From Rotaria socialis (taxonomy: Eukaryota): a stretch of DNA of 49,272 nucleotides. The notes under the pieces are model-generated. The model made no database searches. It was given only the letters and a program-made list of their open reading frames with translations, and was not told the origin of the DNA. Position numbers and translations under genes: made by a program. Below are positions 2,771 through 38,538 of the stretch, piece after piece. Every line of letters begins with the position of its first letter. Position 1 is the first letter of the stretch. Location of the stretch: the NCBI GenBank assembly GCA_905331485.1, contig CAJNYT010000219.1, positions 1 through 49,272 on the forward strand, in the 5' to 3' direction.

Positions 2771-3560
2771 TTAGATATAATTATTTTCTGTAACATAAAG
2801 TTAGACAAGTAAGTAATCATTCATAAGCAGTAACAAATTGTTTTCATGACACACTTGCCAAAAAAGTCCATAGTGGTCCATAGAGTATGATTAAAAAGAA
2901 TAAGTAAATGAGCATTAATTGAATACATGGATATCGACTATTATCTAGATGTGATACATATCGGATGATGCATAAAGAATTATTCCTGTTGTGTTTTTGG
3001 TATTTTTCCTGTATTATCCTGTTAAGTCAAAATTTCTTTTAATCAAAGATAACACTTGCAATTCTACAAAAAATTAAGTAGCCTATTTAATTAATATATA
3101 TATAGCTTCTTCCATTTTACTGGATTCACATCAATTGTACAGTTAGATCGAATATAAAATGTAAATTTCTTATTTTTCTCTTTTTCTCACGACAGACTAT
3201 ATTTCGTCTACCGATGTTGCCGTTGTGATAGCATGATCTCAATAGATAGCTTCAATCAATTAATTCTAGGGTATGCGTGTCGGTGTAGATGTTATTTAGT
3301 TATTTTTGCACAATCACACCCACACCCTCAAGAAGTTAAGAAAAAGATGTTTAATAATTTCTAAGTTTTGCTCGTCAAAGCTTTGCTCGCATGTTGAATG
3401 TTCTTCTTAACTTTAATGATTGCGTGATGATTGTCTTCAAATGTTTTGTGGTAAATAAGCAAAGCTTTTAAAAAACAATGGAAGGTTTGCGGATAGTTTC
3501 CAGTTGAAAAATGAATACTTCCTGTATTGTTGTAAATAAAATCAATAACAGGGCCTTGAG

Positions 3561-3620
3561 GGTGTGGGGTGTACATATATTTATCACCTATAAATACACA
3601 TCCACACCCACACCCACACC
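3561..3620. repeat. Inverted telomeric-repeat module: (TGTGGG)n - 22-bp filler - (CCCACA)n
   Basis: gggtgtggggtgt ... tccacacccacacccacacc; a smaller cacacccacaccc tract lies at 3315-3327. Confidence 0.85.
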
Positions 3621-4279
3621 AACGATAAAAAAGGATATATAACTGTATAAATTTATCAAACAAGACTCGATGTAATACCATTTGTGTCTGAAACTGTTTT
3701 TACTTTTTTCAGAGAGCTCATATTCTAACCAAGTTTACCATTGTAAATGGTAATTAGCAACAAAGTTTAATAAGGTTATGCCATACATGGTTTTACTCAT
3801 CGATTCAAATAGTTCTCTCTCTCTCTCAAGTTAGATTAGGAAGTTCTTCTGATTAGAATTTGACTTTCTGCGTCGATTTGTACAAGCAGATTTTTCTATA
3901 GCACATAATTAGTTTCAAGTAGTACCGTTTGATCGCTCTTGGGTGTTCCTGTATTAATGGTTTTGAGCGGAACACAAATCAACATTCACATCTACAACCC
4001 ATTCGAAATATTTACAAGCCCTGTTGTTTTTTTTTGTGAAGTTTATAATAGAGGTCAATAACGACGAAAACATCACACACACAATCTTGTTTATTTAAAT
4101 CTTAATAATGTAGATTCTGGTGGGGGTTCTTTTCACGCATACCCTCCCCCCCCCCCACTAAACCCTAAATTTCTGTCTCCCCGTCTCTCTCTCTCTCTCT
4201 GTGTTGTCGATAAATCAATATGTAGTCTTGTTTTTAACAGTAGCATCCAGTCAAAACTAGTGTGATAGTATTTCGGTGA

Positions 4280-5362
4280 TCAAATTGATCTATCTATTAC
4301 TTGGTTGTTTCTTGGGCCTGTACCTATCAGCACCACAGGAATGCCTGTTTCACGTTCCATCATTTCTATATACTGCTTGGATTTTTCTGAAAGCTGATCA
4401 TATTGTGTGATACCAGCATCATCATAGTTGATATACTGTATGAAGTTAACTGCCAATTTGTTAACACCTGTCAGTTTCACTGCACGTTTGATACGATTCA
4501 CATCAATTTCAAATACCCGTCGTAATTTCTTAGTAACAGTTGTTAATTCTTTCGAAGAAAATGTCCCAATAGGGGCACCTGCTCGTTGTTCTACTTCTTC
4601 CCATGTGATTTCTTTTCCACCATCCCCTGAATATGCTTCACCTCCATCAGATTTAGCCATGTCATTAGAAATACGAATTGGATATGTACGAATGACACCA
4701 TAGATATCTCGAATATGTTTCGGAGGAATACCGTTATCTGAAAGTCCTTGCATTGGTGAACATTCTCTGCTGGTACAATGTGGATATTGAAAACCATGAT
4801 TAATACCTAATTCAAAACCTTGTGCTATTTCTAAAATACCTGTTTTTCCTTGTTCCAAATCATCGCAAGCCATTTCAGCTGTGTCTGCCAAAAAATTCGA
4901 CCACTCTCGAATGTCATGCATTAATTTATGATCTGGATGCCGCATTACTTTGAATGCACTAGCTGCACCAACACCTTTAAATGTACTTCCAGAGCGTATA
5001 TTCTCCTTTTCCCAATCACGATGTGTTTGTTGGATAACCGATGCTCTTGGATGAATAAAAAGACGGCCTTTTGCTTTTTCTTTGCCGCCAAGATACTGAT
5101 CAACTTCATTTTCAAGCTGTACCAAATCGATAACAGCGCCAGCACCTATATATAATTTCGTACTATCATTAATTAACGCTTGTGGCAACTGTTGGAAAAC
5201 ATATTTGGTGCCATCTTGTTTTATTACCGTATGACCTGCTTGTACACCATAGCTTTCAATAGCAAAATCATATTTGTGCTTTGTAGCTAAATATCCACCA
5301 ATAAGTCCTTTCCCGCACGATCCAAAGCAGAGATCAAGAATAATATCCAACGATCGTTCCAT
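4280..5362 (-). CDS. Short-form adenylosuccinate synthetase family protein (archaeal PurA / PurZ-type length), 360 aa, single exon
   Basis: Colinear with PurA throughout: 'QAGHTV' matches the NAGHT His motif, 'KGVGAASAF' the GTTGRGIGP region, 'LEIAQGFELGINHGFQYPHCTS' the EGAQG..DHGTYPYVTSS block, and the C-terminal 'EYDKLTEKGKAFI..ERVGVPV.IISTGP' of archaeal PurA aligns with 'QYDQLSEKSKQYIEMMERETGIPVVLIGTGP'. At 360 aa it has the archaeal/PurZ size, not the ~450 aa eukaryotic size. The N-terminal P-loop reads 'FGSCGKGL' where the canonical sequence is 'WGDEGKGK'. A true ATG (cat on the plus strand at 5360-5362) starts the ORF, and it has no intron. Confidence 0.8.
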   Translation of the reverse strand: MERSLDIILDLCFGSCGKGLIGGYLATKHKYDFAIESYGVQAGHTVIKQDGTKYVFQQLPQALINDSTKLYIGAGAVIDLVQLENEVDQYLGGKEKAKGRLFIHPRASVIQQTHRDWEKENIRSGSTFKGVGAASAFKVMRHPDHKLMHDIREWSNFLADTAEMACDDLEQGKTGILEIAQGFELGINHGFQYPHCTSRECSPMQGLSDNGIPPKHIRDIYGVIRTYPIRISNDMAKSDGGEAYSGDGGKEITWEEVEQRAGAPIGTFSSKELTTVTKKLRRVFEIDVNRIKRAVKLTGVNKLAVNFIQYINYDDAGITQYDQLSEKSKQYIEMMERETGIPVVLIGTGPRNNQVIDRSI

Positions 5363-7575: not shown

Positions 7576-9954
7576 TTAGACTTCTTTAAATAATATTCCG
7601 TAGGGTCGAACATTCTGTGAATTGTTACACGTCCATATATCTCGATTGTGCTTTGCGATCGAACTATTATTAATTCTCACTTGAAACATAACTTGCAATT
7701 GTCGGCCATTGTATGGTGTTGGCCTAGAGTAGTGTCTACTCCCGGAATATGATGGATTAGGCGATAAATATATGCCTCGACCATGAGCAGAACCATTAAC
7801 AATAGGTATCCCATTACTACCTCCAGCAATTAAACCATTACGTAGTATAGCTAAAGCATTGGCAGTTGCAGTACCATGATAAGCTACAGGCCATGCATCT
7901 TTGCCCTCCGCTAGCCATTCAGCATTTTCATATTTTCCAAGTACTTTAATAGCCTTTCTATACCATCCGCATGGCCTTGTATAAGGTTCTGGTCCACGTT
8001 GAAAAGTTCGACCGGCATCATTTCTTGTTGTAAAATCGTAGTCGTAAGTGCTATCAAGAAACTCTTCATCTAGCATAACACGATTTACAAAACGATTAGT
8101 CCGAGCAGTAGCACTTGAAAAATGTGGAATATAAGCTGCAATTGAACTCTGATTGTATTGATAAAATCGAACGTTTTGATCATCTTCCCATCGATTTATA
8201 TCATTATCAATATTCCAATAACTTAATCGAATACTTTCAGGACATGTATATTCAGATGGTTCATTTATTATTAATAGTGGACAATGCTCTTTTTTATCAC
8301 TAAATTGAATATGATCAGCTTTGAAATGAATAACTGATATAATTCGATTATAATTTTCTTCTAATGTTCCTTTGTCCGGTACATAATCTTCGTTTTTCCA
8401 TACAGTATTTGGTAAGGATTTACTTACTACGGACTTTGATTCTGATTCTTGTGCTATTTTATATTCCATTATTCGAGAAGAATAATACATAACAGCATTA
8501 CTTTCATACATATCAGCCTTTTCACACTGAGGACACTTTATTTTTACAGTAGAATTAGACTCTTGTTTAATGGTTGATGTTAGTTTATCATTTAATCTTT
8601 TACAGCACTGGTAACAAAATAAAGCTGAACAATTTGGATTAAGACATAATCTATGTTTTTCAGGTATTAAACGACAATATAAACATTCTAAAGCCGAAGT
8701 TCCTTCCATTTCAAATTTATCAATAATTTTTGATTTACGGTATTCTGATAATCGAACTTTCTTGTAACATGTTGGACAATGATGTTCATGATTTGTATTA
8801 TCACAACTGGATTCAATACAAATGCGACAAAATACTTGTGTACAATATGGGCATTCTAAATTATCATCATTAAGTTGTGATAAACAATTTAGACATTCAG
8901 GTTTATCTATGAAAATTAATGAAGATGTTGACGGTTTATTAATTAAAGTAGCTGAATTAAAATCCGTTTCAACTGCTTGTGCTAAATTAGTTTCATTGGA
9001 TGGCGTTTCTTTTTTTGAGGATATAATTGGATTTGACTGAGTAGGATTTATTTTCTTAATGTTAACTTTATCAATCTGATTATTCAATTCATTGATTTTT
9101 GTTGATATCTTCATCCAATTGCATGATGATTTTAAATTATCGATCAAGAAATCGTTGCTCCCAATAGAAATTGTTGTTGATTTTTTATTTCCAATTGTTT
9201 GTTTTGCTTGCTGGGCGGATTTAATCACATTGATGGTCTCAACTGGAAACATTAAAATAATTGTATTATTATCCAATCGAGCTTCACATTCATAATTTAT
9301 TATAGCAAATTTATCCTTATTGATGTCTGAAACTTTTTGACAGCGATCACTAGGTTGGACTGCATTAATCTGAGATGACCCTATATCTCCGTCGACGATA
9401 GTATCAGGCTGAATATTAAATTTTAATTGAACAATAGAACCAGGATTAATTCCTAAATCCAACATTGGAATATATGCATTTTTATTTAATGAGTAATATT
9501 TTCCATTAGCCATAATTCCTTGCGCATAGCGACCGTCGCAACATCTTACTTTACAAAATTGAGATAACAATAAACGATCATAGGGTAATGCTATTAATAA
9601 TGGATAATCATATATTTGGACTGATTTGAACATGGCCGTTTTTATTAATTTAATATGTGACACGTCAGCATTAGCTGAAATGAATATTTTTTCTAGTAAT
9701 TCAAAGTAATTTTCTACATTCATTGTAATTTTTTCTGATAAATGATTAGTTTGAATCATTTTACCAATATGTTGACATAATTTATTATATCTGAGTGGAT
9801 GAATTAATTGGGACGAAGGAATAATTCCCATTTTAATTTCAGTTATTGGCCAATATCTGAGATCTTGATCTTTACTAACAGCGCTAATAGGTTTATTATA
9901 ATCAGAATTTTCACTTTCTAATTGATTAGTGTTATCGGCAATTAAATGAAACAT
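7576..9954 (-). CDS. Large (792 aa) protein with several Cys-rich zinc-finger clusters (RING/IBR/B-box-like) and a C-terminal PARP-type (H-Y) ADP-ribosyltransferase-fold segment
   Basis: Cys clusters 'CLNCLSQLNDDNLECPYCTQVFCRICIESSCDNTNHEHHCPTC', 'CLYCRLIPEKHRLCLNPNCSALFCYQCC' and 'CPQCEK'. The C-terminal 'WPVAYHGTATANALAILRNGL...GSAHGRGIYLS' matches the PARP H-G-S/T ... IL..GF ... G-x-G-I-Y-F pattern. The ORF stops before the third catalytic position of the ART triad. True ATG start. Confidence 0.6.
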   Translation of the reverse strand: MFHLIADNTNQLESENSDYNKPISAVSKDQDLRYWPITEIKMGIIPSSQLIHPLRYNKLCQHIGKMIQTNHLSEKITMNVENYFELLEKIFISANADVSHIKLIKTAMFKSVQIYDYPLLIALPYDRLLLSQFCKVRCCDGRYAQGIMANGKYYSLNKNAYIPMLDLGINPGSIVQLKFNIQPDTIVDGDIGSSQINAVQPSDRCQKVSDINKDKFAIINYECEARLDNNTIILMFPVETINVIKSAQQAKQTIGNKKSTTISIGSNDFLIDNLKSSCNWMKISTKINELNNQIDKVNIKKINPTQSNPIISSKKETPSNETNLAQAVETDFNSATLINKPSTSSLIFIDKPECLNCLSQLNDDNLECPYCTQVFCRICIESSCDNTNHEHHCPTCYKKVRLSEYRKSKIIDKFEMEGTSALECLYCRLIPEKHRLCLNPNCSALFCYQCCKRLNDKLTSTIKQESNSTVKIKCPQCEKADMYESNAVMYYSSRIMEYKIAQESESKSVVSKSLPNTVWKNEDYVPDKGTLEENYNRIISVIHFKADHIQFSDKKEHCPLLIINEPSEYTCPESIRLSYWNIDNDINRWEDDQNVRFYQYNQSSIAAYIPHFSSATARTNRFVNRVMLDEEFLDSTYDYDFTTRNDAGRTFQRGPEPYTRPCGWYRKAIKVLGKYENAEWLAEGKDAWPVAYHGTATANALAILRNGLIAGGSNGIPIVNGSAHGRGIYLSPNPSYSGSRHYSRPTPYNGRQLQVMFQVRINNSSIAKHNRDIWTCNNSQNVRPYGILFKEV

Positions 9955-10016
9955 AATTAATTGTAAAACTGAAATGGACTCATTTTCTGATAATAGTGTT
10001 TTTGATTCTTTACGTT

Positions 10017-10688
10017 CTAATAATAATAATCGGATTTATGAATAATTAATAATCGAAATGGTGGTAATGCAACACGATTTAATCGAAAAGAAAGTTTTAA
10101 AATTTCTTCGTATAATTCTTTTGCTTCATTTTCTAATGAAATCATTATATTTTCATATACTAATACATAATCAGCAAGATCAACAGGTATTGTGTCAATG
10201 TTATCACTATATAGTATAGTGGATAATATCAGATGAGCTGCACCAATAGTCATAGATTTCGGCAACCAAATCGATTTTAATTGACTATTTTTTGTTGTAG
10301 AAGATAATGAATTTAATGATTTAACTGAATAAATTTCATATTTAACCATACCAGCATCAGTGGTCTGATTTATATTATTAACAGTAATAAAATTACTAAA
10401 AGTTGTATAGAGATCATTGACAAATTCGTGTAAGATTGGATTGCCTTTTAAGTCTAAGACTTTTGTTTGTGCTTGTTGTTGAGATTTCTCAATTGTTTCT
10501 TTAACTATTTTACCGTGATCTTTTGATGAAAATGAATTAAAACAATACTTTTCACTTTCAAATAATGCTTTTAATATATTGACAGTTGTTGGGGTGTCAT
10601 AGATAATATTACTTATTGTGTTGTTTCGGTTATTCGCATTAAGATCATTAGTATCGCTTTGATTGGGAACAGTGGAGGAATTACCCAT
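10017..10688 (-). CDS. 223-aa ORF with an MGNSS N-terminus (N-myristoylation-type motif); unknown function, possibly a separate upstream gene or 5' partner of the 7576..9954 gene
   Basis: Uninterrupted ORF on the same strand immediately upstream of the 792-aa ORF. True ATG start. No recognisable domain. I could not find a usable donor that joins it in frame to the downstream ORF. Confidence 0.35.
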   Translation of the reverse strand: MGNSSTVPNQSDTNDLNANNRNNTISNIIYDTPTTVNILKALFESEKYCFNSFSSKDHGKIVKETIEKSQQQAQTKVLDLKGNPILHEFVNDLYTTFSNFITVNNINQTTDAGMVKYEIYSVKSLNSLSSTTKNSQLKSIWLPKSMTIGAAHLILSTILYSDNIDTIPVDLADYVLVYENIMISLENEAKELYEEILKLSFRLNRVALPPFRLLIIHKSDYYY

Positions 10689-11451
10689 TTTTTATTCGTT
10701 CGTAGGCAGAAAATCTGAAATTGTAGTCAAACTATAAAAGTAATACTAACATCGGATTAACTATAAAAATTTTGTGCTAATGATTCGAACAGAAACTCTT
10801 CTAATCGTCGTCCTTCTTCTATCTTAAGAAATTAAAAGACAAAAAGACCGCTTGATAACAGATAAAGAAGAATATTAAAATAAATAGAAGGATGTTTTCA
10901 TATTATCTAATCATTGCTGCTAGATCCTAATAGATATATTTGGCATTTGAATAGATAATTTTAACTTGTGTTCAATATCATATAACACTGTTGTATGGAA
11001 AAAATTTTTATTGCCAACGAAAAATCGTCAACCCACTTGTTTGAACAAGAATTTAAATATTTCAATTTTTTATTGTAGTGTTTTTTATGGGTCACCCTGT
11101 ATATAAACGAAACGAAAAGAAAAATGTAATATGAATCATTACTAACAACAAGAGACATGAAGAGAAACTCAAGGACACGCATATATAGTGAAATCTATAA
11201 TAAAGAAAGTACCAATAGTCTCCTCTGAACACAGTACAGATCATAACTATCTAATATAGATGAATAAATTATGAATATATCAGTGGCTGGCATGTGTAAG
11301 ATTTGCATAACTTGATGCAACCTAATTCACATATTCTTCAGTTCTATCTGAGTCGATTGAATGTAAAAGCTTTTCAGAATAAAGTAAAAATCATGCCAAC
11401 TTTAAAAAATTATTTCCTATGTAATGTTAACTGGCTGTCTCTTGTTTCAGC

Positions 11452-11508
11452 GGATGTGGATGTGTGTGCGCTATCTTTAACCCAGCCTACGCCCACACCC
11501 ACACACCC
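11452..11508. repeat. Degenerate inverted telomeric-repeat module
   Basis: ggatgtggatgtgtgtgcg ... cgcccacacccacacaccc. Confidence 0.6.
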
Positions 11509-11542
11509 TTATGATACTTGACGTCTCTTATTGATCCTTGTA

Positions 11543-12551
11543 TTAGAGATCTGAGCTACGTAAACTCCAGAGTTTAATTATCCATTTGTTTGCGATTTCA
11601 TCAAAGTGGCACGATGTTACCTTAGCAGGAAAACCATCGAAAATCAAAAGTTCTTGTTCATCCGGATAATTTGAATATGGGGACATATCCAGAGAGCCGG
11701 TATCTTTTTCGAGGTCAATGACAAAAAGAAAGTTGCTGCCAAAGAATTCGGCCACGTTCGGATTAAGAGTAGTTGAGGTAAACGCCGGTAATTGGATTTT
11801 TCTTTCAGAGACAACGCATAGTCGAAATTGTTCAATTTGTTCGTTAGTCATCGTTGCTCCTCGATATACTATCATATTAGTGGGAGTAAAATTCATAGCT
11901 GAATTCAATAGTACAGCAAATGGGCCGTTTGGCCATCCATTCACCTTCTCGTTGCTTCCCCACCTTTTTCGCTTCGATTATAAATCCTTCCGCTGCCTTT
12001 TCTATCCACATCTCAAGTACTGACTGACAAGTGATACCTTTCTCCCAACCAACGCCGTAATGAGAACAAGCTTCTTGAACAAAATCAGGAGTTGTTGGTT
12101 CAATTTGCCAGTTTATGAAACTGTTCGAAGGCAAAACTGAATCTTCCAAGAAACGTTCCGCTCTTACTCGTTTCTCTCGTTCATCCTTGTTACGATCAAC
12201 TATACGTTTCACTGGCCGTTGTTTCTTTTCGTCATTATTAGAGATTTGCATAGAACGTGCAAAAACGATATGATAGTCGTCGAGAAGAGCTTCTGGTAAG
12301 CCTTGTTGGAATGCTTCTTCGATGATTTCAGTTTCTACATCGGTGTATTTTCGCCATTCAGCAGGTTCTGCAAAACAGAAAGGAAGCGCATTAGATTGCC
12401 ACAGCCACTCTATATACTGCTTGGCAATCAATGCAGTAGTAGTCATATACGCAACGACCAAACGGTAGCAGTAAAGATTAGATGTGATAGTAAAAAGAAA
12501 GAAAATGAAAGATATATTTCGTTTCATTATTGACTCTTTTTGTTGTTCCAT
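11543..12551 (-). CDS. Secreted R-S-E clade mono-ADP-ribosyltransferase (arginine-specific type), two exons (12551..~11945 and ~11898..11543), ~320 aa
   Basis: The 224-aa ORF has a signal-peptide-like N-terminus (MKRNISFIFFLFTITSNLYC) and the helical N-domain. The 133-aa ORF carries the catalytic triad: 'VYRG' (R), 'FTSTT' (S-T-T) and 'DEQELLIFDG' ([Q/E]-x-E). The two ORFs overlap in different frames. A 46-nt segment with a GTGAAT donor and a TTCAG acceptor removes the overlap and joins the frames exactly (...KQRE-A-MNFTPTNMIVYRG...). The second ORF's 'M' is GTG, which is consistent with it being internal to an exon. Confidence 0.75.
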
Positions 12552-17899: not shown

Positions 17900-18720
17900 T
17901 TATTGTGCAGCGGTAGGCTTTTCATTTAAGGAAATGTGCTCCAACCGCATTAGACCATCCATACGTATAGGCTTCTGTTTTTGTTTACTTTCAATACAAA
18001 CGCCATTAGCTACAGTACGAAATAGCTGCGTAATATCTTTATTTGGCTTTGCTATGTGTTTCAATAGATGTTTGGCGAATAATCCATTTCTATCAGTAGT
18101 ATCACCATCAGAGGCAATTTGATTTGGGCTACATGCAAAGACGACGTAGCTGCCATCCGGTACTTCCATTGCATGTAAACTAATACCTTCGAGCTTCGCT
18201 AAAACAACGATACGTGATACATCTTATACGGCACAATTTTGACTAGTTTTTGCTACCAACCGTTTCTTTGCCTTTTGTTTTTTGGATAGTGTACTCGACA
18301 ACAATCTAGTATAAATACCGTCACAAAGGATGGATTTTTTTGTCTTAATTGATGAAGAGTGCGTTCGGCACAAGTACAATAATCCTCAACATCTTCATCA
18401 GATTTAATTAAATCATCATCTACGTGAGCCAAATATGTTCTGCCATTAACGTGATAGCCATGGCCAGAAAAGTAGAACATAACCAAATCGCCGTCAACGA
18501 TTGTCTCAGCAAAAGCGGATATTGTAGAGGCCATTTGTGACTTTGTAAGATCACGTGCCGTTTTTACCTGAAATTTAATATTTCGTAGCACGTTACTAAG
18601 ATCATTAGCATCATTGATACAATGACGAAGTCTATCTTCAGATTGAATATAATTCTGGTTTCCGATAACTAATGCTATTTTACGGCGAGGCCTTGAGGCA
18701 GTAGAATTCAGAGTAGCCAT
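17900..18720 (-). CDS. Caspase-family (peptidase C14-like) protein: p20-like part (18253..18720) plus p10-like part (17900..18169), split by a short intron or frameshift
   Basis: 'KIALVIGNQNY...CINDANDL...FQV', 'FYFSGHGY' (catalytic His-Gly) and 'ILDCCR' (catalytic Cys, D-x-C-R type) sit in the first ORF. 'GSYVVFACSPNQIASDG...NGLFAKHL' in the second ORF is the typical small-subunit motif. The open frame upstream of the second ORF extends to '...RIVVLAKLEGISLHAMEV'. A candidate 62-nt intron (weak GTTGGT donor, TTGTTTTAG acceptor) would join the two parts. Confidence 0.6.
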
Positions 18721-25832: not shown

Positions 25833-27707
25833 ATGACTTCATTAACGAAAAATCTTGAAGGTCTGACTATTGTATGGCTTGATGTTGATCGTATTCATCA
25901 AAACACCGATGATTATTTTGATACGAAAAATCGTCTACGACAATGCAATAATTATATAGAAATATATCATGATCCAAATGAGTGTATTCATGGTATAATA
26001 GCGAATGGATACGTTTTTCTAATCGTTTCTGGTTCAATCTGCGAAACATTTATTCCGCTGATTTTTGAAATCAAACAGATCGTATTTATTTACGTTCTAT
26101 ATTCGGATAATCAATTGACGGACACCTGTGAACTAAAAACTATTTCAAAACTTCATGGAATATTCTCAAGTAAAAACCAACTTATTGAAAAACTGAAACA
26201 AGACGTCAAATCATATTTGAAGAGTTTGCCACTAACATGTATCGTCAATGAAAAGTCAATTCGTGCTTTAAACAAAGAATATTCTACGTTTATGTGGACT
26301 CAATTGCTTATGGACGTTTTAATTCAAATACCTCAAACAGATCGTGCAAAAATGATGATGTTAGAAGATTGCCGATTGCATTATGCTGATAATAAAGCTC
26401 AATTAGATGATATTAACGAGTTTCAAGAAAAATATGAACCAGACTTTGCAGTTTGGTGGTATACACGTGAGAGTTTCGCATATAAACAATTAAACCAAGC
26501 ACTACGTACACAAGATATTGACATTATTTTTAAATATCAATTTTTTATAAGAGATCTTTATGTACTATTGAAAGAATTATATGAAGAATCTATGCCATCC
26601 TTAGAAGAAATATCGATTGTCTACCGTGGCCAACATATCAATTGTGATGAATTGGAAAAAATAAAAAATAATGTGAACGGTCTTATTTCAATGAATTCAT
26701 TTTTATCAACAACTCGAAACAAGAATCGAGCTTTAATATCCGCCGGTGATGGTTCAAATAGGCCCTCGCTTGAATCCATCTTATTTGAAATTACGATTAA
26801 TAAAAATGTTGCTGCTAAAACTAAACCATTCGCTGACATTACAAAGATGAGTCAATTTGGCAAGGCAGAAGAAGAAATACTATTATCGATTGGAAGTATA
26901 TTCAAGATTCAGTCAGTTGAACAGTTAGCTGAAAATGCTCATGTTTGGGACGTTAAGCTAATATTAAATGAATCAGTGGTGATTAATGAAATAGACATGT
27001 TATTCAATTATTTCAAAATGAATTCAACTACAAGTATATCGAATGTCGGTACATTAGGTTTACTATTAGGAGAGATGGGAGAATATGAAAAAGCGGAAAA
27101 ATATTATCAAATGATGCTTGATGAATTATCAACAGATCATTGCGGAGTTCCAATAATATTAAATAATATGGGAGTATTATACAATGATATGGGTAATGAT
27201 GAAAAAGCATTAGAATATTATAAGAAATCATACGAAAGTTATAAAATGCAAAACGTATCAGAAAATGATCTTCTCTTAGCGAATTTATATCATAATATGG
27301 GTTCATTGTATTATGAAAATGAGTATAATAAAACAGCATTGAAATATTTTAAAAAAGCTTTTAAAATTTGTAATAATAATTCTACGCTACCCAGTCTTTT
27401 ATTATCTGCAACATTATATACAGACGTGAGTGGAATATATCAAGATAATGAAGATTCTGTTAATGCATTGGATCAGTTGCAACACACATTTGAAATCCAA
27501 AAAAGAATTCTACCATCAACTCATTTCAGAATCGCTGCAACATACAATAACATAGGAAGTGTTTATCTTTGTAAAGGAGATTATGCAAAAGCATTAGAAA
27601 ACTTTGAAATAGCCTTGAATATTGGATTAAAATCTTTGCCAGCCGATCATGAACATATTCAAACATATCGTGAAAATATAAAACATGCTAAAGAAAGAAT
27701 AAAGTAA
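25833..27707 (+). CDS. ART-TPR protein: R-S-E mono-ADP-ribosyltransferase domain followed by about 4 TPR repeats, with an uncharacterised N-terminal domain; 624 aa
   Basis: 'ISIVYRGQ' (R), 'SFLSTTRN' (S-T-T) and 'GKAEEEILLSIGS' (E-x-E). The C-terminal TPR-like repeats include 'LGEMGEYEKAEKYYQMML', 'MGVLYNDMGNDEKALEYYKKS', 'MGSLYYENEYNKTALKYFKKAF' and 'IGSVYLCKGDYAKALENFEIAL'. True ATG with an in-frame TAG three codons upstream. Confidence 0.85.
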   Translation: MTSLTKNLEGLTIVWLDVDRIHQNTDDYFDTKNRLRQCNNYIEIYHDPNECIHGIIANGYVFLIVSGSICETFIPLIFEIKQIVFIYVLYSDNQLTDTCELKTISKLHGIFSSKNQLIEKLKQDVKSYLKSLPLTCIVNEKSIRALNKEYSTFMWTQLLMDVLIQIPQTDRAKMMMLEDCRLHYADNKAQLDDINEFQEKYEPDFAVWWYTRESFAYKQLNQALRTQDIDIIFKYQFFIRDLYVLLKELYEESMPSLEEISIVYRGQHINCDELEKIKNNVNGLISMNSFLSTTRNKNRALISAGDGSNRPSLESILFEITINKNVAAKTKPFADITKMSQFGKAEEEILLSIGSIFKIQSVEQLAENAHVWDVKLILNESVVINEIDMLFNYFKMNSTTSISNVGTLGLLLGEMGEYEKAEKYYQMMLDELSTDHCGVPIILNNMGVLYNDMGNDEKALEYYKKSYESYKMQNVSENDLLLANLYHNMGSLYYENEYNKTALKYFKKAFKICNNNSTLPSLLLSATLYTDVSGIYQDNEDSVNALDQLQHTFEIQKRILPSTHFRIAATYNNIGSVYLCKGDYAKALENFEIALNIGLKSLPADHEHIQTYRENIKHAKERIK

Positions 27708-28478: not shown

Positions 28479-30061
28479 TTATTCTGCTAGTTCTGCTTCT
28501 ATAAGACGAACACAATGACTAAGTCCATCTTCATTTTTAATTAATTCGCTAATCTTTTTAGCACTGGTTTTATAAATGTTATAATTGTCAATCATAAGAT
28601 CACGAATTGCATTAGTTAAATTCTTCACATTGGTGTGACGTATGGAAATAGATCTTGGTCCTAATCTATTGATAAATATTCGATCACCGTTAAATGGTTG
28701 ATCGGCTCCAAAAGATAATACTAATGTAGGCAATCCATACCAAAGACTTGCATGTGTAGTACCGGCACCACCATGATGAATTGTTGCTGACATATAAATA
28801 AATAACCAAGAATGTGGAATGGCATGTGTCAAATAAAATATATTATCAGCTGTGGATAACGTACTGGCATCTGCGCTTTTAAATCCAACTAATGACATAA
28901 CTGCTTTACAATTATTTCTATCAAGAGCCAATAAAATTTTGCGTATAAATTCCATTTGTTCATCTGCTCCAAACATGGTACCCATCATTGATCCAAGACC
29001 AACATAGATAATCTTCTCGTTTTTCCATTTGGTCAAGAAGTCAAGAATAGGAGTTGGCGGTTGAAAATTCTCATTTTCTTTTTCAAGTATTGGACCGACC
29101 ATATGATCATTTTCGTGCCAATCGGATGGACATGGTATTAAATATTTGGAATAGATCGTTGCAGATACCAATGGCTTACGAAACAGGGATTGAGTCATAC
29201 GTTCATAATTTAATTTCATTGGTGGTAAATCATTAGTGGCACGAAGTTCATTGAGTTTATCATTATAGATGCTTGACATAGCATAGTCGACTATTTTCCA
29301 TTTCAATAAATTGGTCCACTTGAACAAACTACCACTTTTCCCACCTAAACCAGGCGGCGAAAAATGAACTGTTCGTATCACTGGGAATGTGTAGATTCCA
29401 ATTGCTTTAATATTAGGAAATTTCTCAATACAACTTAATCCAGGGAAAATAGATGCAACTGTTAGAACAATTAAATCAGCGTCTTTTACACCAGACAGAA
29501 TTCCATTAAACCATTCTTCAATCGCTGGTTGAAATATACGTTTTACTAATCCCATTTTTAAAATACTTGGATTCCGTCGGAGCTCGATTCCTTCTGGGCT
29601 TGTCGATAAAAAATGTTCTAGGTCACCACCGATTTCAACTACATCGAAACCTGAATAAACAAATAGAAGGTGATATCATGGAAATATTAATGAAAGAACT
29701 CTTCAATATTAGATTTAGATTTATATTGTGCGATGATACAATGATAATATGGGAAAGTATCAAGCGATTGTTGGATTTAAGATTGATAGTACTTACCAGC
29801 AGCTTTTACTATGTCTTGATAACGTCGATGTACACCAAGCCATACGATATGTCCACGTTTTTTAAGTTCTTCGGCAAGTATCATAAAAGGTTTCACATCT
29901 CCTAGAGTGCCAGTCGCCGGAATAAAAATCTTTTTAACTCTAGTATTCTTGCTACTGTCATTAATTTCTTTGGCAATCGAGCTTTCTTCCTGGCTTTCCA
30001 AGTCCATGAGATGTGAATCTTCACTTATATTTCTAAAATTGAAATCAATAATGTGTTTCAT
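28479..30061 (-). CDS. GT1-family UDP-glycosyltransferase (sterol 3-beta-glucosyltransferase / macrolide-GT type), two exons (30061..29797 and 29650..28479), ~480 aa
   Basis: Exon 1 'KKIFIPATGTLGDVKPFMILAEELKKRGHIVWLGVHRRYQDIVKAAG' is the GT-B N-terminal signature. Exon 2 carries 'HHGGAGTT' and 'GLPTLVLSFGADQPFNGDRI' (C-terminal UDP-sugar motif). A GTAAGT donor at 29796 and a TTATTCAG acceptor at 29651 give a 146-nt intron. That joins the frames exactly: ...VKAAG|FDVVEIGGDLEHF..., matching the UGT51-type 'GLEFFPIGGDP'. There is no GRAM/PH N-terminus. The track start at 30079 is TTG; the first ATG is at 30061. Confidence 0.8.
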
Positions 30062-33000
30062 ATAGAAATATAATCGCAAGAGACAGAATAATCAAATGTT
30101 ATATGTTGTAGATCGGATGACATGAATCGTTAACTCCTAAGTACATAATAGAAAAACAACGGTCCATCATCCTATTGGCTAAAAACAATTGAAATAAATA
30201 AGGCAAATACATTATCACCACAAAAGCTTAAAGTATAATGTTGACAAGAAGAAAAACTATCATGTCACAATTGCAATAAAGATAAGAACGATTCATAAAA
30301 CAAAAACATGCTTTTACACGACGTATAAAGTTGTGCTATAAAAAAAGCATACATTTAATTACATAGTTGCTGCTTTCATGTATCTATGTTGTCACTGACG
30401 GCAAATCTCTATCGAATAATAAATAAGATTTTCATTATTTAAGTCACCAGCAAACATAAAGTCTATATTACATGAATGAATATACATGTTTTCATGCATA
30501 ATATCATACAATTCTAACGTTTTCTTTGTTATACTAGTTATATAGCGTGTGATTCTTATCTTTAGCACAAGCGTTTTTGAAAAAAGAGAACAGAAACGAA
30601 GTGCAACACTCGAAAATGTATTAAATTTCGTTCATTTCGAAGTACTTTTAAAATAAGATAAAGAACGAAGTTTACTCTAAAAAGAATTTTTCTTTTTTAA
30701 AATACTTATTTCTACAATACGCAGCATGCAGCGGCGGAGCCAGGGAAGGACTAGGGGGATTGAGCCCCCTTGCTAAATTTTTGAAGGATGAATTTTTTCT
30801 ATAAAAAGATGTATAAGTCTTTGTAATTGAATATTTGAATGCTTTAGTTATTGGGTGAAGCTCGTAGTTGTTTCGGAAGAAAATAAAATACCGTAATTCT
30901 AATTTCCAATCAAGTTTTAAAGGTTATAATCTATCCTTACAACACATAACTAATGATTGAAAGATTTGAGGGTACGGTTTTGTTTATTGCCACTCAACTA
31001 GTTAGAAGGCATCTCAGACGAGTCGAAAGTTATTCTATGGCTAAAGCTTTGCGCTTTTTCGAAGATGATCTTATAAATGTTATGTATATTTTTATTCAAA
31101 TATAGTGAAGGACTTAGTGCAGAGCGTAAAAAGTTACTTTCAATGATGCGCGAACATTTTTTTGTTTGAACTGTAAGCTACGTTACGAAGATGTTAAGAG
31201 TTGTCGTAGTCCGTGATTTTCTTGAGCGGATACTTCCCGACAAAAAGGGGGATATTGATTTAAACTAGTTTTAACTCAATTAATTCTACACGCATTTATT
31301 AGGAGCTCCTCTTAACGTAAAATGATTTTGTTGAAAAGTCAATTTTTCAGAAATGAGTTTTGAGAAGAACAAAAGCTGAGATGTCTCAGCGAAAGCTAAA
31401 AAACTTCATGTAGTACATATTTTAGGGTATTTTAGGTTCTGCAAGCTGATTTATAGGGCAAGATAAGAAGTTTTCGATTTGAGTTGTAAAGCAAAATACA
31501 AAAATGAACGGAAGAAGTTTCCATCTTCACCTATTTGTTTGCTTTTCTGAAGAATATTTCACTGATTACTTTCGAAGAAAAACTGAATTCTAGGTCAATT
31601 TCCAAAACAGGTACCAAATTTTGATAGTAACTAATAATAGTTTTGAGCAAGTCGAAAATACTTTCTGTCAAGTTGAACGCGAAAAAACATTTTGCTTGAA
31701 AGCTTTCCGACCGCGCACGAATAAACTTTTGGATTAGTCAAAAAGACATTTTTCAAAAATCTCTTCAGATATGAGTAATAGTCGGCGAACAGCAACAGTC
31801 AAGTTATAAAAACTTTTTGAGTTTTTGCTGATTATTTTTTTCTCTTTTCGGAATTAGGAACATGCATCAATTTGATGCAGTTTTGTTGCACTATCAGATA
31901 TAATAATAGTAAAAAGTTTTGTAACTCATTCTAATGAAAAAATCAAAGTACTTAGAAAAAATTTGTCGTACGACACAATGTATCTATAAACGTTTCCAGG
32001 CGAGAATTAAAAAAAAACGCAGCAAACACCTGGTGATTGAAACAGACTTGTGAAACCAACGGTTATCACCATTATTCATATCGCACATTTAACAATGTAT
32101 TATTTCAAACAACGCAACTATACCAAACTGACAGAGAAGACAAACACAGGATGAGAGAGAAAGCACATACATACTAAAACACAGCCAATCCACACACCCC
32201 AGAAAATGACGCACACAAAAATATAGCTAATGATTCAAGACAAAATTATATCTCATAAAACATCTTCCCAGCAAAATAAAGCGTAAGAGCTCAAACTTTC
32301 CATTCAAACAAGCAACAATCATTCCAAATATTCAGATCTTGAAATGTACCAACTGCAACGACCACCGAGACTTATGAGTACTTCCAGTTACATTAACAGC
32401 ATTGATCCTATACGGGTTATGTCTTAATTTAAAATATGATCAACTCCATCTATGTATTCAATAGGAAAATTCAATCATTTACTGATATACTTGCTTCAAG
32501 AACTTTTCAAGGAGAACTATTATAGGTGCTATCTGCTGGGGCCACTACTGGTAGTTGTCGTCTGAACTTATATTTATCGATTTAGATAACGTGATGAATG
32601 AAAAGCATGAAAACCTATCAATTTCGTTGTTTAATAGGCAATTTTAGCAAAATAACATAAAATATCTTCGAATTCTAAGGAACTCCGTGGAACTTCAAGG
32701 AGTTGGAGTCTGCCGTTTTCTCCTTTGTTTAACGGGCAGAGCTGTCTCAATTTTTCAGAATTTCTACCTTAGCACTGTCACTTATTTAGCAAATTAAAAT
32801 TGTTTTTGAAAACCTTCTATTTTCATGATTTAGAACAATTAGCGACGAGGTTCATAATAAAATGCATTAACGTTGAGCTTCATGAAGTATGAAATTTTCC
32901 ATGGTATACCGACTATTTCAGCAGCTTGTGCAATAACTCAACGTGCAGAACTGAAAGGAAATATATGAACAACATTTGCCTACTCCTTGTTTTTTTCTCT

Positions 33001-33100
33001 TTTGCTTTACATGGAGTAACGCGTAACCACATTAGTTATCACACGATTCTATTGAAAATCGATCATAAAATGGAGACGTTCGCAGATTGATTATTTTCAG

Positions 33101-36100
33101 ATGAAACCAACTACTACCTCTACTTCATTATTATCACCATTCAATGGCAAAAGCATTGTACTCGAACTTGGCCATGAAGTAGGTTTCAAAGCTAAGCAAG
33201 AATTGATCAATTATTTACGAGAACAGCAAGCACATATTTCGTATATTTTGACAGCCAGTGTATGTTCGCGTGTTATTTCATCAAACATGTGGTTGGAGTT
33301 ACCTTTCTTTTAGACTGATTATGTTCTAACTACGACTAATGTAGATAGCTACAAAATACGTCGTGCCAAACGGCTTGGCTTACCGGTAGTGAATGTTGAA
33401 TATGTACACAAATGCCGTTGTTTGCGACCTGGTCAAACACCTATTGATATTAGCAAATTTATTATCAAGTCAGCAGAAGATCAAGAGAACTTTATAAAAA
33501 CCGGCACTATTTCCATGCAAGGTATTAGAAGTTCTTGTAAAAATCATGTCAGACATCTTTGTTTATTAGAAACTCGAGTAAACGTGACTAAAGCCAATAG
33601 ATTCGATTTGACTAAAATCAAGCTGTGGAATTCGGACGATGTAAATTTGCCTCGTTTCGATGAGCTGGCACATTGTGAGCTTGGCAGATGGGCGATTTTC
33701 AAAGTAGATTTGTATTCATTTCTAGCTGTTATTCTCTTATATTTCTATTGTTCATAGCAGGAAACCAATGATAATTCAAGTGTATTTTTTGTTCTTGAAC
33801 TTCAAGTTATTCCCGAAGAGTACTATGATCGAACAACGAGTGATTATCAACTACGATTTCGATATGAAAAACAGACTATTACCGACGAAGTTTCACAACA
33901 CGATAAAAAAGTATTGGTACAATACGCATTCAGTGATGATCCAAACGAACAACAACAGTTGTTTGCGTCGTACTATTATCGTGTGGCTGCAATGCCACGT
34001 ATAACACGAATTAGTGAGATGTTACCTAACAAATTAGGATCAAAATTATTATTACGTGTATGCAAATGACATTGATAAAAGAATATAATTTAGTTTTTAC
34101 ACATAAAAGAAATTGTTTCTAGTCTTTATTTACACAACGTATCGACACACAAATACTCGATGAAAATGTATGTCAATTGATTGAATCGATTTGGCTAGAA
34201 TCGATTGGTGATCTGAATAAAATTTTGAGCATATCACCTGAATCGATTACTCTCAAAACAGTATGTGTACACTTTCATATTACTGTGTGTTCTAAACATC
34301 CAAATAGATCATTGAGGCCGAAGCTGCACTACTCGAACTCAAAGCGACCAACAATCCTGCTGCTGCACTTCGTTTCTATTCACTTATACCACATCGACCA
34401 GAGTACAATATTGATCTAATCAAGAATCATCGAGCGTTGATCGAAAAAATAGACCTATGTCAGGTATGTCAATCTTGTTTTAAATTGTTTTACTTGATCT
34501 TTTCCCCGTTCAGATGCTTCGAGATATGCATACAGTCAACGAACTGACCAATTGGAATGTTAAAGCACCAATCGAAGCTAAATATCGAGCATTGAAATGT
34601 CATATTGAAACAGTAGCGAGTTCAACATTCGACTTTAAGAATATTGCTAAGCTCATTCAGTCGTCGACTAATAGGCGAGAGAATTTAACATTCTATTTCA
34701 TAATGATTGTTTTTTGTTTATTAGTGGTGAAGAAATTTTAATTCACAACATATTCAGTGTGACTAGACAGACAGATGCACTCAATTTTCGTACAACACTC
34801 TCCCACCAATGGCAGCTGTTTCATGGATCGAAATATGTCAATTTTCTTGGGATTCTTTCACGGTAAAATACTCATTTCGTTCTCTAGACAACATTTATAT
34901 GGCGGTTGTGCGTACGTTTAGTGGTTTAGTCATGCCTAAAATTGTAGTGGACCAATTGGGCGTTGAACGTACTGACGTGGGTTGTCTCGGTTATGGGATA
35001 TATTTTTCAGATTCTGCTTCGACGTCTTTGAAATATACGACAGCAAGTAGAATACGGCCAGGTCGTCGTTTGTTATGCATTTGTCAAGTAGCACTTGGTG
35101 AATCAGCCAATTATTATTTGTTTTCGCCGACTCTCACCAAACCTCCTGATGGTTTTCATAGTACACATGGAGTCAAACAAACAGAAGAAAATCAATCAAA
35201 GTTCACTGTAAGTGAAATGCTAGAAGGATTTATTAATTATGATACTATTTCACAAATCTACTTTGCGTTCTATCGAAATAGGATAATGAATATGCCATCT
35301 ATCAAGTTGAACAACAACGTTTACTTTATGTTGTGGAAGTTTCATGGTCGCCGATTGATGCTCTCAGTATCACTTTAGAACGACTACCTATTGTTCACCA
35401 TCAAGAACATGCATTGAAATTAAGTGAGCACGGTAATGATAAGCTATGATTTCTTGTTGGAATAAACAATTGACTAAATTTTTCTCAAAATATTCTAGCT
35501 GAAGTTCCATTAACGATGGAGGATGAAATCATTGAAGTAGCCGAACAAGACTATGGTTTGATATGTTCATCATCGAGAGACCTTGTACCACTTAAATCAT
35601 TTCATATTCGTGCTCAAATTGTTGATGTTACAGTTGAAGTAATTATATCTACGTTTCGATTGAAGTAAAATACTAATTCCTCATGTTTCTATCTAATGAA
35701 AAGGTTGTTCTCTATCAAGTCTATCATAATACGAGTTCGATACCTATCGAAGCTAAGTATGTGTTTCCTCTTGATGAAAATTCAACTGTATGCGGTTTCG
35801 AAGCACATATTAACAATAAAGTTATCAAAGGTGTCGTTAAAGAGAAAGAACAAGCCAAACGCGAGTATAGAGAAGCAATTGAAAAGGGTCATGGCGCCTA
35901 TTTAATGCATCAAGAAGAAGCTCAAGTGTTCAGCGTTGCGGTTGGTAATTTGCCAGCGCATACTGAAGTTATCATCAAAATAATTTATGTTGCCGAATTA
36001 GAAATCGAAAATGATGACATTATTTTTCGCCTTCCAGCCAAAATGACTTCATGGCAATCGAAAAAAGCTGTCGAAACCAAAGATCAATCGATTTTACGAT

Positions 36101-38538
36101 CTATCGGTATTGTCGATGAAAAAGTTGAATTCAGTTTCAAAGCATCGATTCGAATGCCCTATAAAATAACGAAATTATTTTCCCCAACACATCATCTACG
36201 TCGGAAAGTAACCGATTGTATAGCTATGATTGAACTTGTTGATAATGTCTTAATTGATCAAGATTTTATTCTTTCGATCACACTCAACAGTCCTAATTTA
36301 CCTCGAATAGCAAATGAAACATTGCCATTGGATGGCAACAGTGAAACAACTGACACATCGAACAGCCATCAATCTCAAACATGTATGCTTACCTTTTATC
36401 CACGATTCGAAACATTGACGACTTCGAAAGAACAAGTTGAAATTATTTTCATTGTTGATCTATCAAATTCAATGGATGGCAGTCACGTACAGCAAGCTAA
36501 ACAGTTAGCTCATTTGTTTCTTACGAATTTGAAAGTTGAAGATGAGAATACATATTTTAATGTAATTACTTTTGGATCAGGTAATAAGATGATATTCTAC
36601 AGCGTTATTGCGCATTCAAAACACTATAACGCTTTCAAAATATCATTTGATTTTGATGAAATTTCGCACACAGAATCGTCTCATCAATATTTCGAGCAAG
36701 TTCGAGGATGACAATGATTCGCAGTGGGTTATACTAAAAAATGCCATTATTTCCTTCGTTTTCTCTATGGGAACATTGGCCTATCCAGGTTACGTGGACG
36801 CACTTTTTGGTCCTCTAGTACTATATTATGAAAATCAATTGAAATATTATAGTGAAGTATATTAAGTCATACACAAAGGTAAGCTATCTCAGCTTGGTTT
36901 CTGAGATTCAGAAACAGGCACCTAAATATTACAAGATTTTGCACAGTCACGAAGATCTAATGGATCGCCTTGACCCATGCGACGTGATATATACCGTTCG
37001 ATAGAGAATTTTACGGGCTAAAAAAATGATCAGTCTAGATAATTAGGCTGGGTCATCGTAATCAGCCGAGTTACTTTTTGAAGTACATATAGTATTAGGA
37101 TCTACATTTATTTTACTATTGAAATTGCAACTATTTAGATAACGATGAATGTTTTCCTATGTCAGCACCAACTACAAAAGAAAATCTCGATAAAGCCAAA
37201 CACTTTGTTCTAGTTAGTAGTTTATTTTTTGAATCTGATTTTTCTATTGAAATATCCGTTTTCATAAATTCTAGCATTCACGTGTCCATCGTGGTAATAC
37301 GGATCTATTTGCTGTCCTTCAACGTTATTCGTTATTACGATCGTCGTTATCGTCGAAATTTGGCCGTCAAATCGTTCTTTTATCCGATGGACATATTCAC
37401 GACCTCAATTCAATTCTGGCTCTACTCAAACATCGACCAACTATGCGTCGTGATCGTTTGTTTACATGCTCAATTGGTAATGTTGCAAACAAACATGTTT
37501 TGAAACAGTTAGCTAATGGAGCAAATGGAGGTGGTCTAACAATAGTATTCGATTCAAACTATCGATCGAAGTGGAAAACAAAAGTATTTAACATCCTCGA
37601 ACAGATTCGACAACCGTGTGTAACAAATATATCAATCGACTGGCATGGCTGTTTGAATAAAGAGCAAAAACTCAATATGCAAGCACCGAAAAAGATTCGA
37701 TCTTTGTTCAATGGAATGCGACTTACTGTTTATCGATTCATAGAAAATTGTCACAAGGCAACATTGGCGGCTACTATTGACGAACAAGAATTTGTTACGA
37801 CTGTATTTAGTAGTGCAATGACAACGACCAGAGGACGTATTTTACACTGTCTAACCACTCGAGCGATTATTGATGATTATGACAACGGGCTATTGGATGT
37901 CGACGAGAGCGAAAACGAATTGATCAAAGTTCAATACAAACGAGATCTCATCGATCTCAGCATCAAACATTCTGTTGTCAGTAAATACACTAGTTTTGTT
38001 GCCATCGAAGAACGTGATGTCAACACGGATATAAAAACTGTTCAACCAGGTTAGTAAAATAATAGCAGAAAAGCAAAAATTTATCTGTATGTTTCTTACA
38101 CTATGGATCAAAAATCTTACTAGCACCAAAATTGAAGTATCTACATCACTATTGAAACATGTACTCTCTGTTATAGGTGTTCGTTTGCTTGAAGTTATGC
38201 TGGAACGCGATGTTGACTTACTACCATGCATGGGATGGGATGGTGATGTTTCAAATTTGACTTCAATCAAACAGAAATTGGCCGATGCGCGTATTTCACT
38301 GGAATGTGCATCGATTCAGGGCAAAAAAGAAACAATTGTTGATATTGAAAAACTTTGTCAAAAAGTTTCCTATCGAGCAGGTGGTGATGCGAAATTTGCT
38401 ATCATGATGGCTATCATACGCACATATCGACATTCATTGAATGATTACGATAAAGCAGATGAACTAAAAGATAAAATGCAAAAGGGTATGCTAATTGATC
38501 TAGGACCAAAATCTACATATATCGAATTTAAAAAATGA
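33101..38538 (+). CDS. Vault-PARP (PARP4)-like multi-exon gene: BRCT - PARP catalytic - VIT - vWA, at least 10 exons with 45-75 nt introns
   Basis: BRCT-like exon 33101-33313 continues as '...YKIRRAKRLGLPVVNVEYVHKC'. PARP signature exons follow: 'ALKCHIETVASSTFDFKNIAKLIQ', 'QWQLFHGSKYVNFLGILSR', and after a 60-nt intron 'GLVMPK...GYGIYFSDSASTSLKY...LLCICQVALGES...EGFINYD'. The VIT domain reads '...AQIVDVT|VVLYQVYHNTSSIPIEAKYVFPLDENSTVCGFEAHINNKVIKGVVKEKEQAKREY'. vWA reads 'EIIFIVDLSNSMDG...NVITFGSG', and the exon from ~37274 gives '...IVLLSDGHIHDLNS...RLFTCSIGNVANKHVLKQLANGANGG' (VWA5A/ITIH-like). Exact exon borders were not all resolved. Confidence 0.7.
34514..35378 (+). CDS. PARP catalytic-core exons of the PARP4-like gene (H-Y-E type)
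   Basis: H-G-S in 'LFHGS', G-x-G-I-Y-F in 'GYGIYFS', and an E in 'SEMLEGFINYD' corresponding to the NEYIVYD block. Donor GTAAAA after 'tcacg' and acceptor 'cgtacgtttag' (60-nt intron) keep the frame. Confidence 0.65.
35683..36711 (+). CDS. VIT domain plus the first half of the vWA domain (largest exon of the PARP4-like gene; 3' border may be the GTAATAAG donor at ~36581)
   Basis: The VIT consensus is reproduced. The vWA MIDAS-type 'DLSNSMDG' is followed by '...ITFGSG'. Confidence 0.65.
   Translation: MFLSNEKVVLYQVYHNTSSIPIEAKYVFPLDENSTVCGFEAHINNKVIKGVVKEKEQAKREYREAIEKGHGAYLMHQEEAQVFSVAVGNLPAHTEVIIKIIYVAELEIENDDIIFRLPAKMTSWQSKKAVETKDQSILRSIGIVDEKVEFSFKASIRMPYKITKLFSPTHHLRRKVTDCIAMIELVDNVLIDQDFILSITLNSPNLPRIANETLPLDGNSETTDTSNSHQSQTCMLTFYPRFETLTTSKEQVEIIFIVDLSNSMDGSHVQQAKQLAHLFLTNLKVEDENTYFNVITFGSGNKMIFYSVIAHSKHYNAFKISFDFDEISHTESSHQYFEQVRG
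37274..38054 (+). CDS. Distal vWA-domain exon of the PARP4-like gene
   Basis: The open frame from 37275 aligns with VWA5A '...LFVFTDGEVTDT...FSFGIGEGTS...LIKGIARASGG'. A probable acceptor 'ttctag' lies at ~37268-37273. Confidence 0.6.

Follow-up and report, generated by a model that had tools for sequence, protein, structure and literature searches.

Among animals, bdelloid rotifers are the textbook case of foreign genes taken up on a large scale. The numerous genes that they have acquired from bacteria, fungi, plants and protists frequently contain introns and are linked to genes of the host (PMC3499245; PMC5916493; 10.1101/226720; PMC11258130), and another intron-bearing gene for a foreign enzyme is to be expected there. 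We describe here such a gene in Rotaria socialis, located at positions 28479-30061 (minus strand) of a 49,272-nucleotide (nt) stretch of contig CAJNYT010000219.1, hereafter the window. It encodes a family 1 glycosyltransferase (GT1) with a GT-B fold, belonging to the sterol-glucosyltransferase-like branch and devoid of GRAM and PH domains. Three described systems are close to it. Yeast UGT51, also called ATG26 (PDB 5GL5 and 5XVM; EC 2.4.1.173), carries N-terminal GRAM and PH domains in the three-domain architecture of fungi (PMC9698648). Bacterial enzymes of the macrolide glycosyltransferase (MGT)/OleD/YjiC/Gtf type share with the rotifer protein the GT-B fold, a length of about 400-430 amino acids (aa), a single module and an EryCIII-like C-terminal Pfam domain. 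Finally, short-form GT1 enzymes of 437-443 aa without accessory domains are found in Vermamoeba (P0295) and its relatives (P0122, P0296, P0297 and the metagenomic locus L014).

Comparison with these systems suggests that the R. socialis gene was probably acquired horizontally from a microbial eukaryote related to Vermamoeba, and not from a bacterium, and that its intron came along with it. The gene resembles known bdelloid acquired genes by its non-metazoan affinity, its linkage to host genes, its host-like composition, the presence of an intron and its conservation across genera. It differs from them in that the inferred donor is an amoeba-like eukaryote and that the intron was apparently inherited, not gained. 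Horizontal transfer into bdelloids is itself already known; the corrected donor and the apparently inherited intron are what is new here. In the papers searched this family is not named, no paper contains both 'bdelloid' and 'sterol glucosyltransferase', and glycosyltransferases, the present family included, are not mentioned in the study of acquired genes in the response to pathogens (PMC11258130).

The gene is intact and consists of two exons. Exon 1 (29797-30061, minus strand, 265 nt) begins with the ATG at 30061 and comprises codons 1-88 and the first base of the Gly89 codon; it specifies a disordered leader together with the initial beta-alpha unit of the N-terminal Rossmann domain. Exon 2 (28479-29650, minus strand, 1172 nt, of which 28479-28481 are the TAA stop) encodes the remainder of this domain and the entire C-terminal nucleotide-sugar-binding domain. 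They are separated by an intron of exactly 146 nt (29651-29796, minus strand; GTAAGT...TTATTCAG, ending in CAG), inserted in phase 1 within the Gly89 codon (G/GT, the slash marking the exon junction). The GC content of the intron is 27% vs 35-36% in the exons, and unspliced read-through meets an in-frame stop five codons beyond the donor site. Splicing yields a coding sequence of 1437 nt (478 aa) with the phase 1 junction KAAG/FDVVEIGGD, across which the protein aligns gap-free with intronless homologues. Residues 11-478, junction included, are matched at 100% identity by an NCBI-annotated R. socialis protein (P0001, 'unnamed protein product, partial'); this match identifies the window as bdelloid rotifer DNA and provides an independent annotation of the same splice. 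Owing to the gapless alignment at the junction, to this annotated protein and to the same intron position and phase in other bdelloid copies, the GT..AG pair is not a chance occurrence. The canonical 146-nt intron and the reconstructed AAG-FDVVEIGGD segment put forward in the initial annotation of this DNA are thus both borne out.

The relatives of the protein were sought in two ways. A word-indexed search gave an apparent drop from bdelloid sequences to bacterial or metagenomic proteins of about 30% identity. This picture was revised by an exhaustive HMMER search, which placed eukaryotes nearest: the first matches after the bdelloids were P0122 (315 bits) and P0123 (296 bits), and the next ones, at 190 bits or less, were a mixture of eukaryotes and bacteria. 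The eukaryotes in this lower range included the amoebozoan Vermistella and the sanchytrid Sanchytrium (445 aa, short form), and the bacteria included Anaerosporobacter, Anaerolineae and Hyphomicrobiales. Short forms were also found in the chytrids Obelidium (448 aa) and Cladochytrium (451 aa), and long forms in Gonapodya and in an oomycete; one member of the chytrid group (P0258) adjoins SPT16 and CCT genes. The Vermamoeba vermiformis protein (P0295; EukProt EP00029_P006988, from a transcriptome) has 55% identity with P0122. P0123 (L009, 1612-3621, on a Logan SRR33677529 contig) carries a C-terminal FYVE zinc finger fusion (Pfam E 6e-17) and lies on a compact, apparently intron-free contig with Thg1, CHCH and Rad17-like genes; the fusion and these neighbours indicate that it is eukaryotic. 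No relatives of the Thg1 protein of this contig were found in the protein database.

The Vermamoeba short forms align almost gap-free with the bdelloid proteins at 39-43% identity. The window protein scored 344 bits (39%) against Vermamoeba and 165-174 bits (29-31%) against bacteria, and the Adineta vaga protein 386 bits (43%) and 152-176 bits, respectively, so that scores with the amoeba group are about twice those with any bacterium. Two signatures follow the same distribution. His388, which follows HHGGAG to form the string GTTH, is common to the eukaryotic short forms, where bacteria and plants have GTTAAG, and the string DQPFNGD, with Asn in place of the usual Trp, was found only in bdelloids, the amoeba group and P0123. 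Trees were built by neighbour-joining with bootstrap on 211-213 sequences, at three trimming levels and with two distance measures. Bdelloids were monophyletic (100%) and grouped with the amoeba group and P0123 at 90-100%. The wider clade that also takes in the chytrid and sanchytrid short forms was recovered at 50-62% under Kimura distances and at 83-100% under score distances. The order in which bdelloids, amoeba group and P0123 branch received 35-39%. Long-form plant and chytrid enzymes, such as the sterol glucosyltransferases of Populus (SG1, P0111) and Gonapodya (P0171), fell outside the short-form clade, and deep nodes had support of about 0%. By these sequence comparisons, the nearest relatives of the bdelloid enzymes are microbial eukaryotes, namely Vermamoeba-like amoebae and the organism encoding P0123.

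These results bear on the origin proposed in the initial annotation, in which a bacterial GT1 of the MGT/OleD/YjiC type would have been transferred to bdelloids and would have acquired its intron later. Such an origin has something to recommend it, since bacterial homologues that match the rotifer protein in length and domain layout number in the hundreds (for two of them a bacterial gene context was confirmed) and bdelloid foreign genes are reported to be mostly bacterial (PMC3499245, PMC5916493). We nevertheless disfavour it as improbable. Bacterial sequences reach 27-31% identity and 150-176 bits vs 39-43% and 340-386 bits for the amoeba group, the bdelloid proteins fall in a clade with eukaryotic sequences at the high bootstrap values given above, GTTH and DQPFNGD are not found in bacteria, and the intron is common to an amoeba-type genomic copy (L014, see below). 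The short layout is not a bacterial hallmark either, because the chytrid, sanchytrid and amoeba enzymes are also short and free of accessory domains. Membership in the macrolide glycosyltransferase family was rejected, with a score of 64.5 bits against the NCBIfam model TIGR01426 for a cutoff of 260; the Mgt, OleI and Rgt models gave 21-33 bits for cutoffs of 700-800. The short 'bacterial-looking' architecture is therefore misleading, and the donor was most likely a free-living amoeba-like eukaryote.

The family was present in all bdelloid genera sampled. Homologues of 52-86% identity were found in R. socialis, R. sordida, R. magnacalcarata, two further Rotaria, A. vaga, A. steineri, A. ricciae and Didymodactylos carnosus, with gene models of 443-471 aa containing glycosyltransferase domains only. 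Among the named matches, by which absence was judged, none came from a non-bdelloid animal, monogonont rotifers included. Under the definition of PMC5916493 (hU >= 30 and a clan with non-metazoans) the gene stands with the acquired ones: the window protein scores 344 bits against Vermamoeba vs at most 27 bits against the best non-bdelloid animal, the animal side being represented by PDB chains, plus the named matches, and not exhaustive by name. It also shows the linkage and intron features used in that study, as it lies with apparent host genes in the same 49-kb window and its GC content at third codon positions (GC3) is 0.25 vs 0.19-0.28 in its neighbours. Horizontal acquisition, as first annotated, is therefore the best reading of animal matches confined to bdelloids, host-gene neighbours and host-like GC3. 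Vertical descent would require an ancient amorphean gene, with its intron, to have been kept only in amoebae, some zoosporic fungi and bdelloids. That the relatives are all Amorphea (Amoebozoa and Holomycota) agrees with this, and a shared intron would fit common descent equally well. The lack of any other metazoan among the named matches would, however, imply very many independent losses, and fungi are left out of the group formed by bdelloids and amoebae, contrary to the species tree, which makes vertical descent very improbable.

The intron provides a second line of evidence. It occupies the same alignment column in phase 1 in the four bdelloid copies mapped, with a length of 146 nt in the window copy, 74 nt in A. 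vaga, 317 nt in the second R. socialis paralogue and 1661 nt in Didymodactylos, and is therefore older than the bdelloid radiation and the paralogue split. In addition, many metagenomic matches of about 380 aa proved to be open reading frame (ORF) calls covering exon 2 alone, as would be expected if environmental bdelloids generally have the intron. On the amoeba side, a metagenome scan with P0295 found nothing, and a scan with P0297 recovered a genomic copy (L014, a JGI metagenome contig; gene at 2659-4613). Its reconstructed product of 443 aa is 86.5% identical to the Vermamoeba protein. The gene contains eight GT-AG introns of 47-181 nt, of which introns 6-8 were mapped by eye and verified by translation, and its GC3 is 0.53, unlike that of the rotifer gene. 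Intron 1 (2813-2993; AAG CAA G/gt...ag/GT GTT GAA) interrupts the homologous Gly codon, in phase 1 and within an ungapped alignment. The other seven positions are unoccupied in bdelloids. No intron was shared with chytrids: Obelidium has none, and the two of Cladochytrium lie near aa 30 and aa 214. A weak RasGEF-like ORF (E 6e-4, under the Pfam cutoff) was observed upstream of the L014 gene.

Since bdelloid intron and L014 intron 1 share codon and phase, the bdelloid intron was most likely inherited with genomic DNA of the eukaryotic donor, the downstream introns having been lost. Coincidence of the bdelloid intron with one of the eight would be expected in about 8/1311 cases (0.6%) under uniform placement, or about 2/51 (4%) if only G/G sites accept introns. 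The statement of the initial annotation that the gene has since gained its intron is thus probably wrong. According to the scenario that we propose, a single transfer would have brought the gene into the bdelloid lineage before Didymodactylos, Adineta and Rotaria diverged, in the form of genomic DNA of a microbial eukaryote with affinity to amoebae of the Vermamoeba type. In the donor gene, the Gly codon immediately ahead of the (I/F/V)-(D/E)-x-x-E-I-x-G-D strand would already have been interrupted by an intron. This 5'-most intron would have been kept by bdelloids, the seven downstream ones being lost or never received, and the gene would then have adopted the base composition of its host and been duplicated. 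Retention of the 5'-most intron alone is the pattern expected of reverse-transcript-mediated, 3'-biased intron loss. The pattern seen here would fit this process and offer a clean example of it after a transfer. An intron matching in codon and phase between donor and recipient is a direct, tree-independent pointer to a eukaryotic donor and to transfer at the DNA level. If true, this would be a documented transfer of genomic DNA, neither cDNA nor bacterial DNA, from a eukaryote to an animal, with an intron that marks the domain of the donor. We consider it somewhat more probable than the contrary that the spliceosomal intron travelled with the gene from an amoebozoan-like donor and that its codon and phase were kept throughout the bdelloid radiation.

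Several points weigh against this scenario. Donor-side genomic evidence comes from one copy, L014, which is linked to a Vermamoeba-like amoeba solely by its identity of about 86% to a transcriptome-derived EukProt protein, the sub-threshold RasGEF match being the sole flanking clue to the organism. The trees are neighbour-joining only, and the chytrid link is weak with one of the distance measures (50-62%). As detailed below for the R. sordida orthologue, exon identity barely exceeds that of intron and flanks and a frameshift is present, pointing to modest constraint on the window paralogue. The remaining points concern the intron, and would agree with its independent gain by bdelloids, in the same codon and phase, after transfer from an amoeba-like eukaryote. 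P0122 and P0123, in the sister group, are encoded on their contigs by continuous ORFs: either the intron does not occur throughout this group, or it was lost, or these contigs derive from transcripts. The junction, G/GT in most copies and AAG/GT in L014, resembles a proto-splice site, so that parallel gain is possible, and the other seven amoeba introns are all missing in bdelloids. We regard independent gain as unlikely all the same, given the exact match of codon and phase in an ungapped alignment, for which chance would account in 0.6-4% of cases, and the presence of the intron in all bdelloid copies that were examined, Didymodactylos and both paralogue lineages among them, so that no intron-free stage is on record.

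The direction of transfer was also considered. The gene might have passed from bdelloids to amoebae, or might have come to both from a third party, either a eukaryote not yet sampled or an amoebal giant virus. Amoebae live in the same habitats as bdelloids, and the low bootstrap for the branching order among bdelloids, amoeba group and P0123 (35-39%) would be compatible with either course. The next outgroups are, however, microbial eukaryotes and not animals, the amoeba copy has eight introns vs one in bdelloids, and a scan of viral contigs gave motif-level matches only (44 bits or less). We judge these possibilities together to be highly improbable, and we infer transfer from an amoeba-like donor to bdelloids.

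Structural data support the assignment of the protein to GT1, as first annotated. Three Pfam families matched above their gathering score: PF03033 (Glyco_transf_28 N-terminal, 38.1 for a cutoff of 26.2), PF06722 (EryCIII-like C-terminal, 39.1 for 31.7) and, marginally, PF00201 (UDPGT, 20.6 for 19.5). An AlphaFold2 model built with 73 homologues (mean pLDDT 90.6, pTM 0.89) shows the two Rossmann halves of a GT-B fold. Foldseek returned 465 matches in the PDB at E<=1e-3, and the best 50 of the 465 were all GT1 GT-B enzymes. The top fold match was yeast UGT51 (Foldseek E 4e-25, template modelling (TM) score 0.74-0.83), followed by GtfB/GtfD, spider-mite UGTs and OleD. Its catalytic domain was also the top solved match by sequence (E 1e-27), the next match being at 1e-9. 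UGT51 has the G-S/T-x-G-D-V-x-P and HHGG(A/S)GT...DQ motifs in common with the rotifer protein but is only 21-22% identical to it. The bacterial MGT/OleD/YjiC/Gtf enzymes also differ, with sequence E values in the PDB from 1e-9 to 1e-2 and different signature residues. Among metazoan UGT1/2 enzymes, human UGT2B15/17 matched at E of about 2e-3 over the C-terminal domain only, a negligible similarity. Spider-mite UGTs are regarded as acquired horizontally from bacteria. Like the present enzyme, they (TuUGT202A2 and others) represent animal GT1 of non-animal origin and are structurally related to it (TM score of about 0.65), but they match at E 1e-5 to 2e-4, belong to another GT1 branch and have another inferred donor domain.

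All 14 invariant columns of the family, as defined on the 73 homologues, are kept in the window protein. The N-terminal glycine-rich motif G51-T-L-G-D55-V-K-P58 (29888-29911, minus strand) includes the invariant G54, D55 and P58. The donor-binding signature H380-H-G-G-A-G-T-T387 (28755-28778, minus strand) includes invariant H381, G382, G383, A384 and G385 and nearly invariant H380, T386 and T387 (at least 90% of the homologues). The GT1 sugar-donor motif D405-Q406 (28698-28703, minus strand), followed by PFNGD, is also invariant. The protein does not start directly with the glycine-rich motif, as had been stated: GTLGDVKP corresponds to residues 51-58 and is preceded by an acidic leader modelled at low confidence (pLDDT <65). 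The true start may be Met19 (codon at 30005-30007, minus strand) instead of Met1, because in the R. sordida orthologue Met1 is lost, a stop occupies codon 16 and Met19 is kept. The absence of GRAM and PH domains noted in the initial annotation extends to the upstream DNA, as neither these nor any other Pfam domain (E<=1) were found in the three minus-strand frames of 30062-34000 (3.9 kb).

As judged from its homologues UGT51 and the Gtf enzymes, the product would be a functional, soluble family 1 glycosyltransferase encoded in the nucleus. The C-terminal domain would bind a UDP-sugar, most likely UDP-glucose, through HHGGAGTTH...DQPF, and the N-terminal domain would form a hydrophobic pocket for a hydroxylated acceptor, a sterol being the leading candidate. 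Asp55 of the GTLGD loop would act as the catalytic base deprotonating the acceptor, for an inverting transfer. Both sugar donor and acceptor are predicted by analogy: the chances appear even that the acceptor is a sterol or a similar lipophilic alcohol, and a sterol specifically is a more tentative proposal. The bdelloid family may give its carriers a pathway for steryl or lipid glycosides that is missing in other animals, perhaps in combination with a SnoaL/NTF2-like gene, and its conservation across bdelloid genera would point to a glycolipid or detoxification capacity beyond that of typical animal genomes.

The window copy was compared with other bdelloid copies. A second R. socialis paralogue (P0007) on a 489-kb contig is 61% identical to it. 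The R. sordida orthologue (L013, 3264-4848) is 89% identical in DNA, with 90-92% in the exons and 88% in the intron and flanks, and dN/dS was 0.41 for a dS of 0.16. This orthologue reads GTG in place of ATG at codon 1, contains a 24-nt insertion and the codon 16 stop mentioned above, and is frameshifted near codon 443 by 5 inserted nt, suggesting either a decaying gene or an assembly error. The window copy would thus be a divergent Rotaria paralogue under moderate purifying selection; being intact with canonical splice sites, it appears to be a functional gene, under moderate constraint only. In Didymodactylos, the model P0037 (L002, 4191-5851) has a 9-aa insertion, RFIVLLTES, at the exon junction; it is probably mis-spliced, as a G/GTCGGT...TTTTAG/GT splice would drop the insertion and restore the family consensus.

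At two bdelloid loci outside the window, that of A. vaga and that of the R. socialis core paralogue, a gene for a SnoaL_2/NTF2-like protein of 123 aa (L001, 3037-3408, and L004, 1721-2092, both on the minus strand) was observed upstream of the glycosyltransferase gene in divergent orientation. The two proteins are 53% identical to each other and score 27.6 and 29.2 bits against PF12680 (cutoff 27). This neighbour is missing at the window, amoeba and chytrid loci. As a pair conserved across genera, the glycosyltransferase and SnoaL-like genes could form a functional unit.

The other window genes checked were those for adenylosuccinate synthetase (split), a WWE/PARP protein, a caspase-domain protein, a 624-aa TPR protein and a PARP-VIT-VWA protein. 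Directly downstream of the glycosyltransferase gene and on the opposite strand (25833-27707, plus strand) lies the single-exon gene for the 624-aa protein, which has a C-terminal TPR array (TPR_12, E 3e-29) and no Pfam match in its N-terminal 400 aa. Of the two PARP-type genes, at 34809-36711 (plus strand) and 7576-12551 (minus strand), one has PARP catalytic, VIT and VWA exons and is vault-PARP-like, and the other has WWE and PARP exons. A caspase domain (Peptidase_C14, E 2e-28) is encoded by an ORF at 18253-18720 (minus strand); in bdelloids, a metacaspase apparently derived from fungi has been described (PMC11258130).

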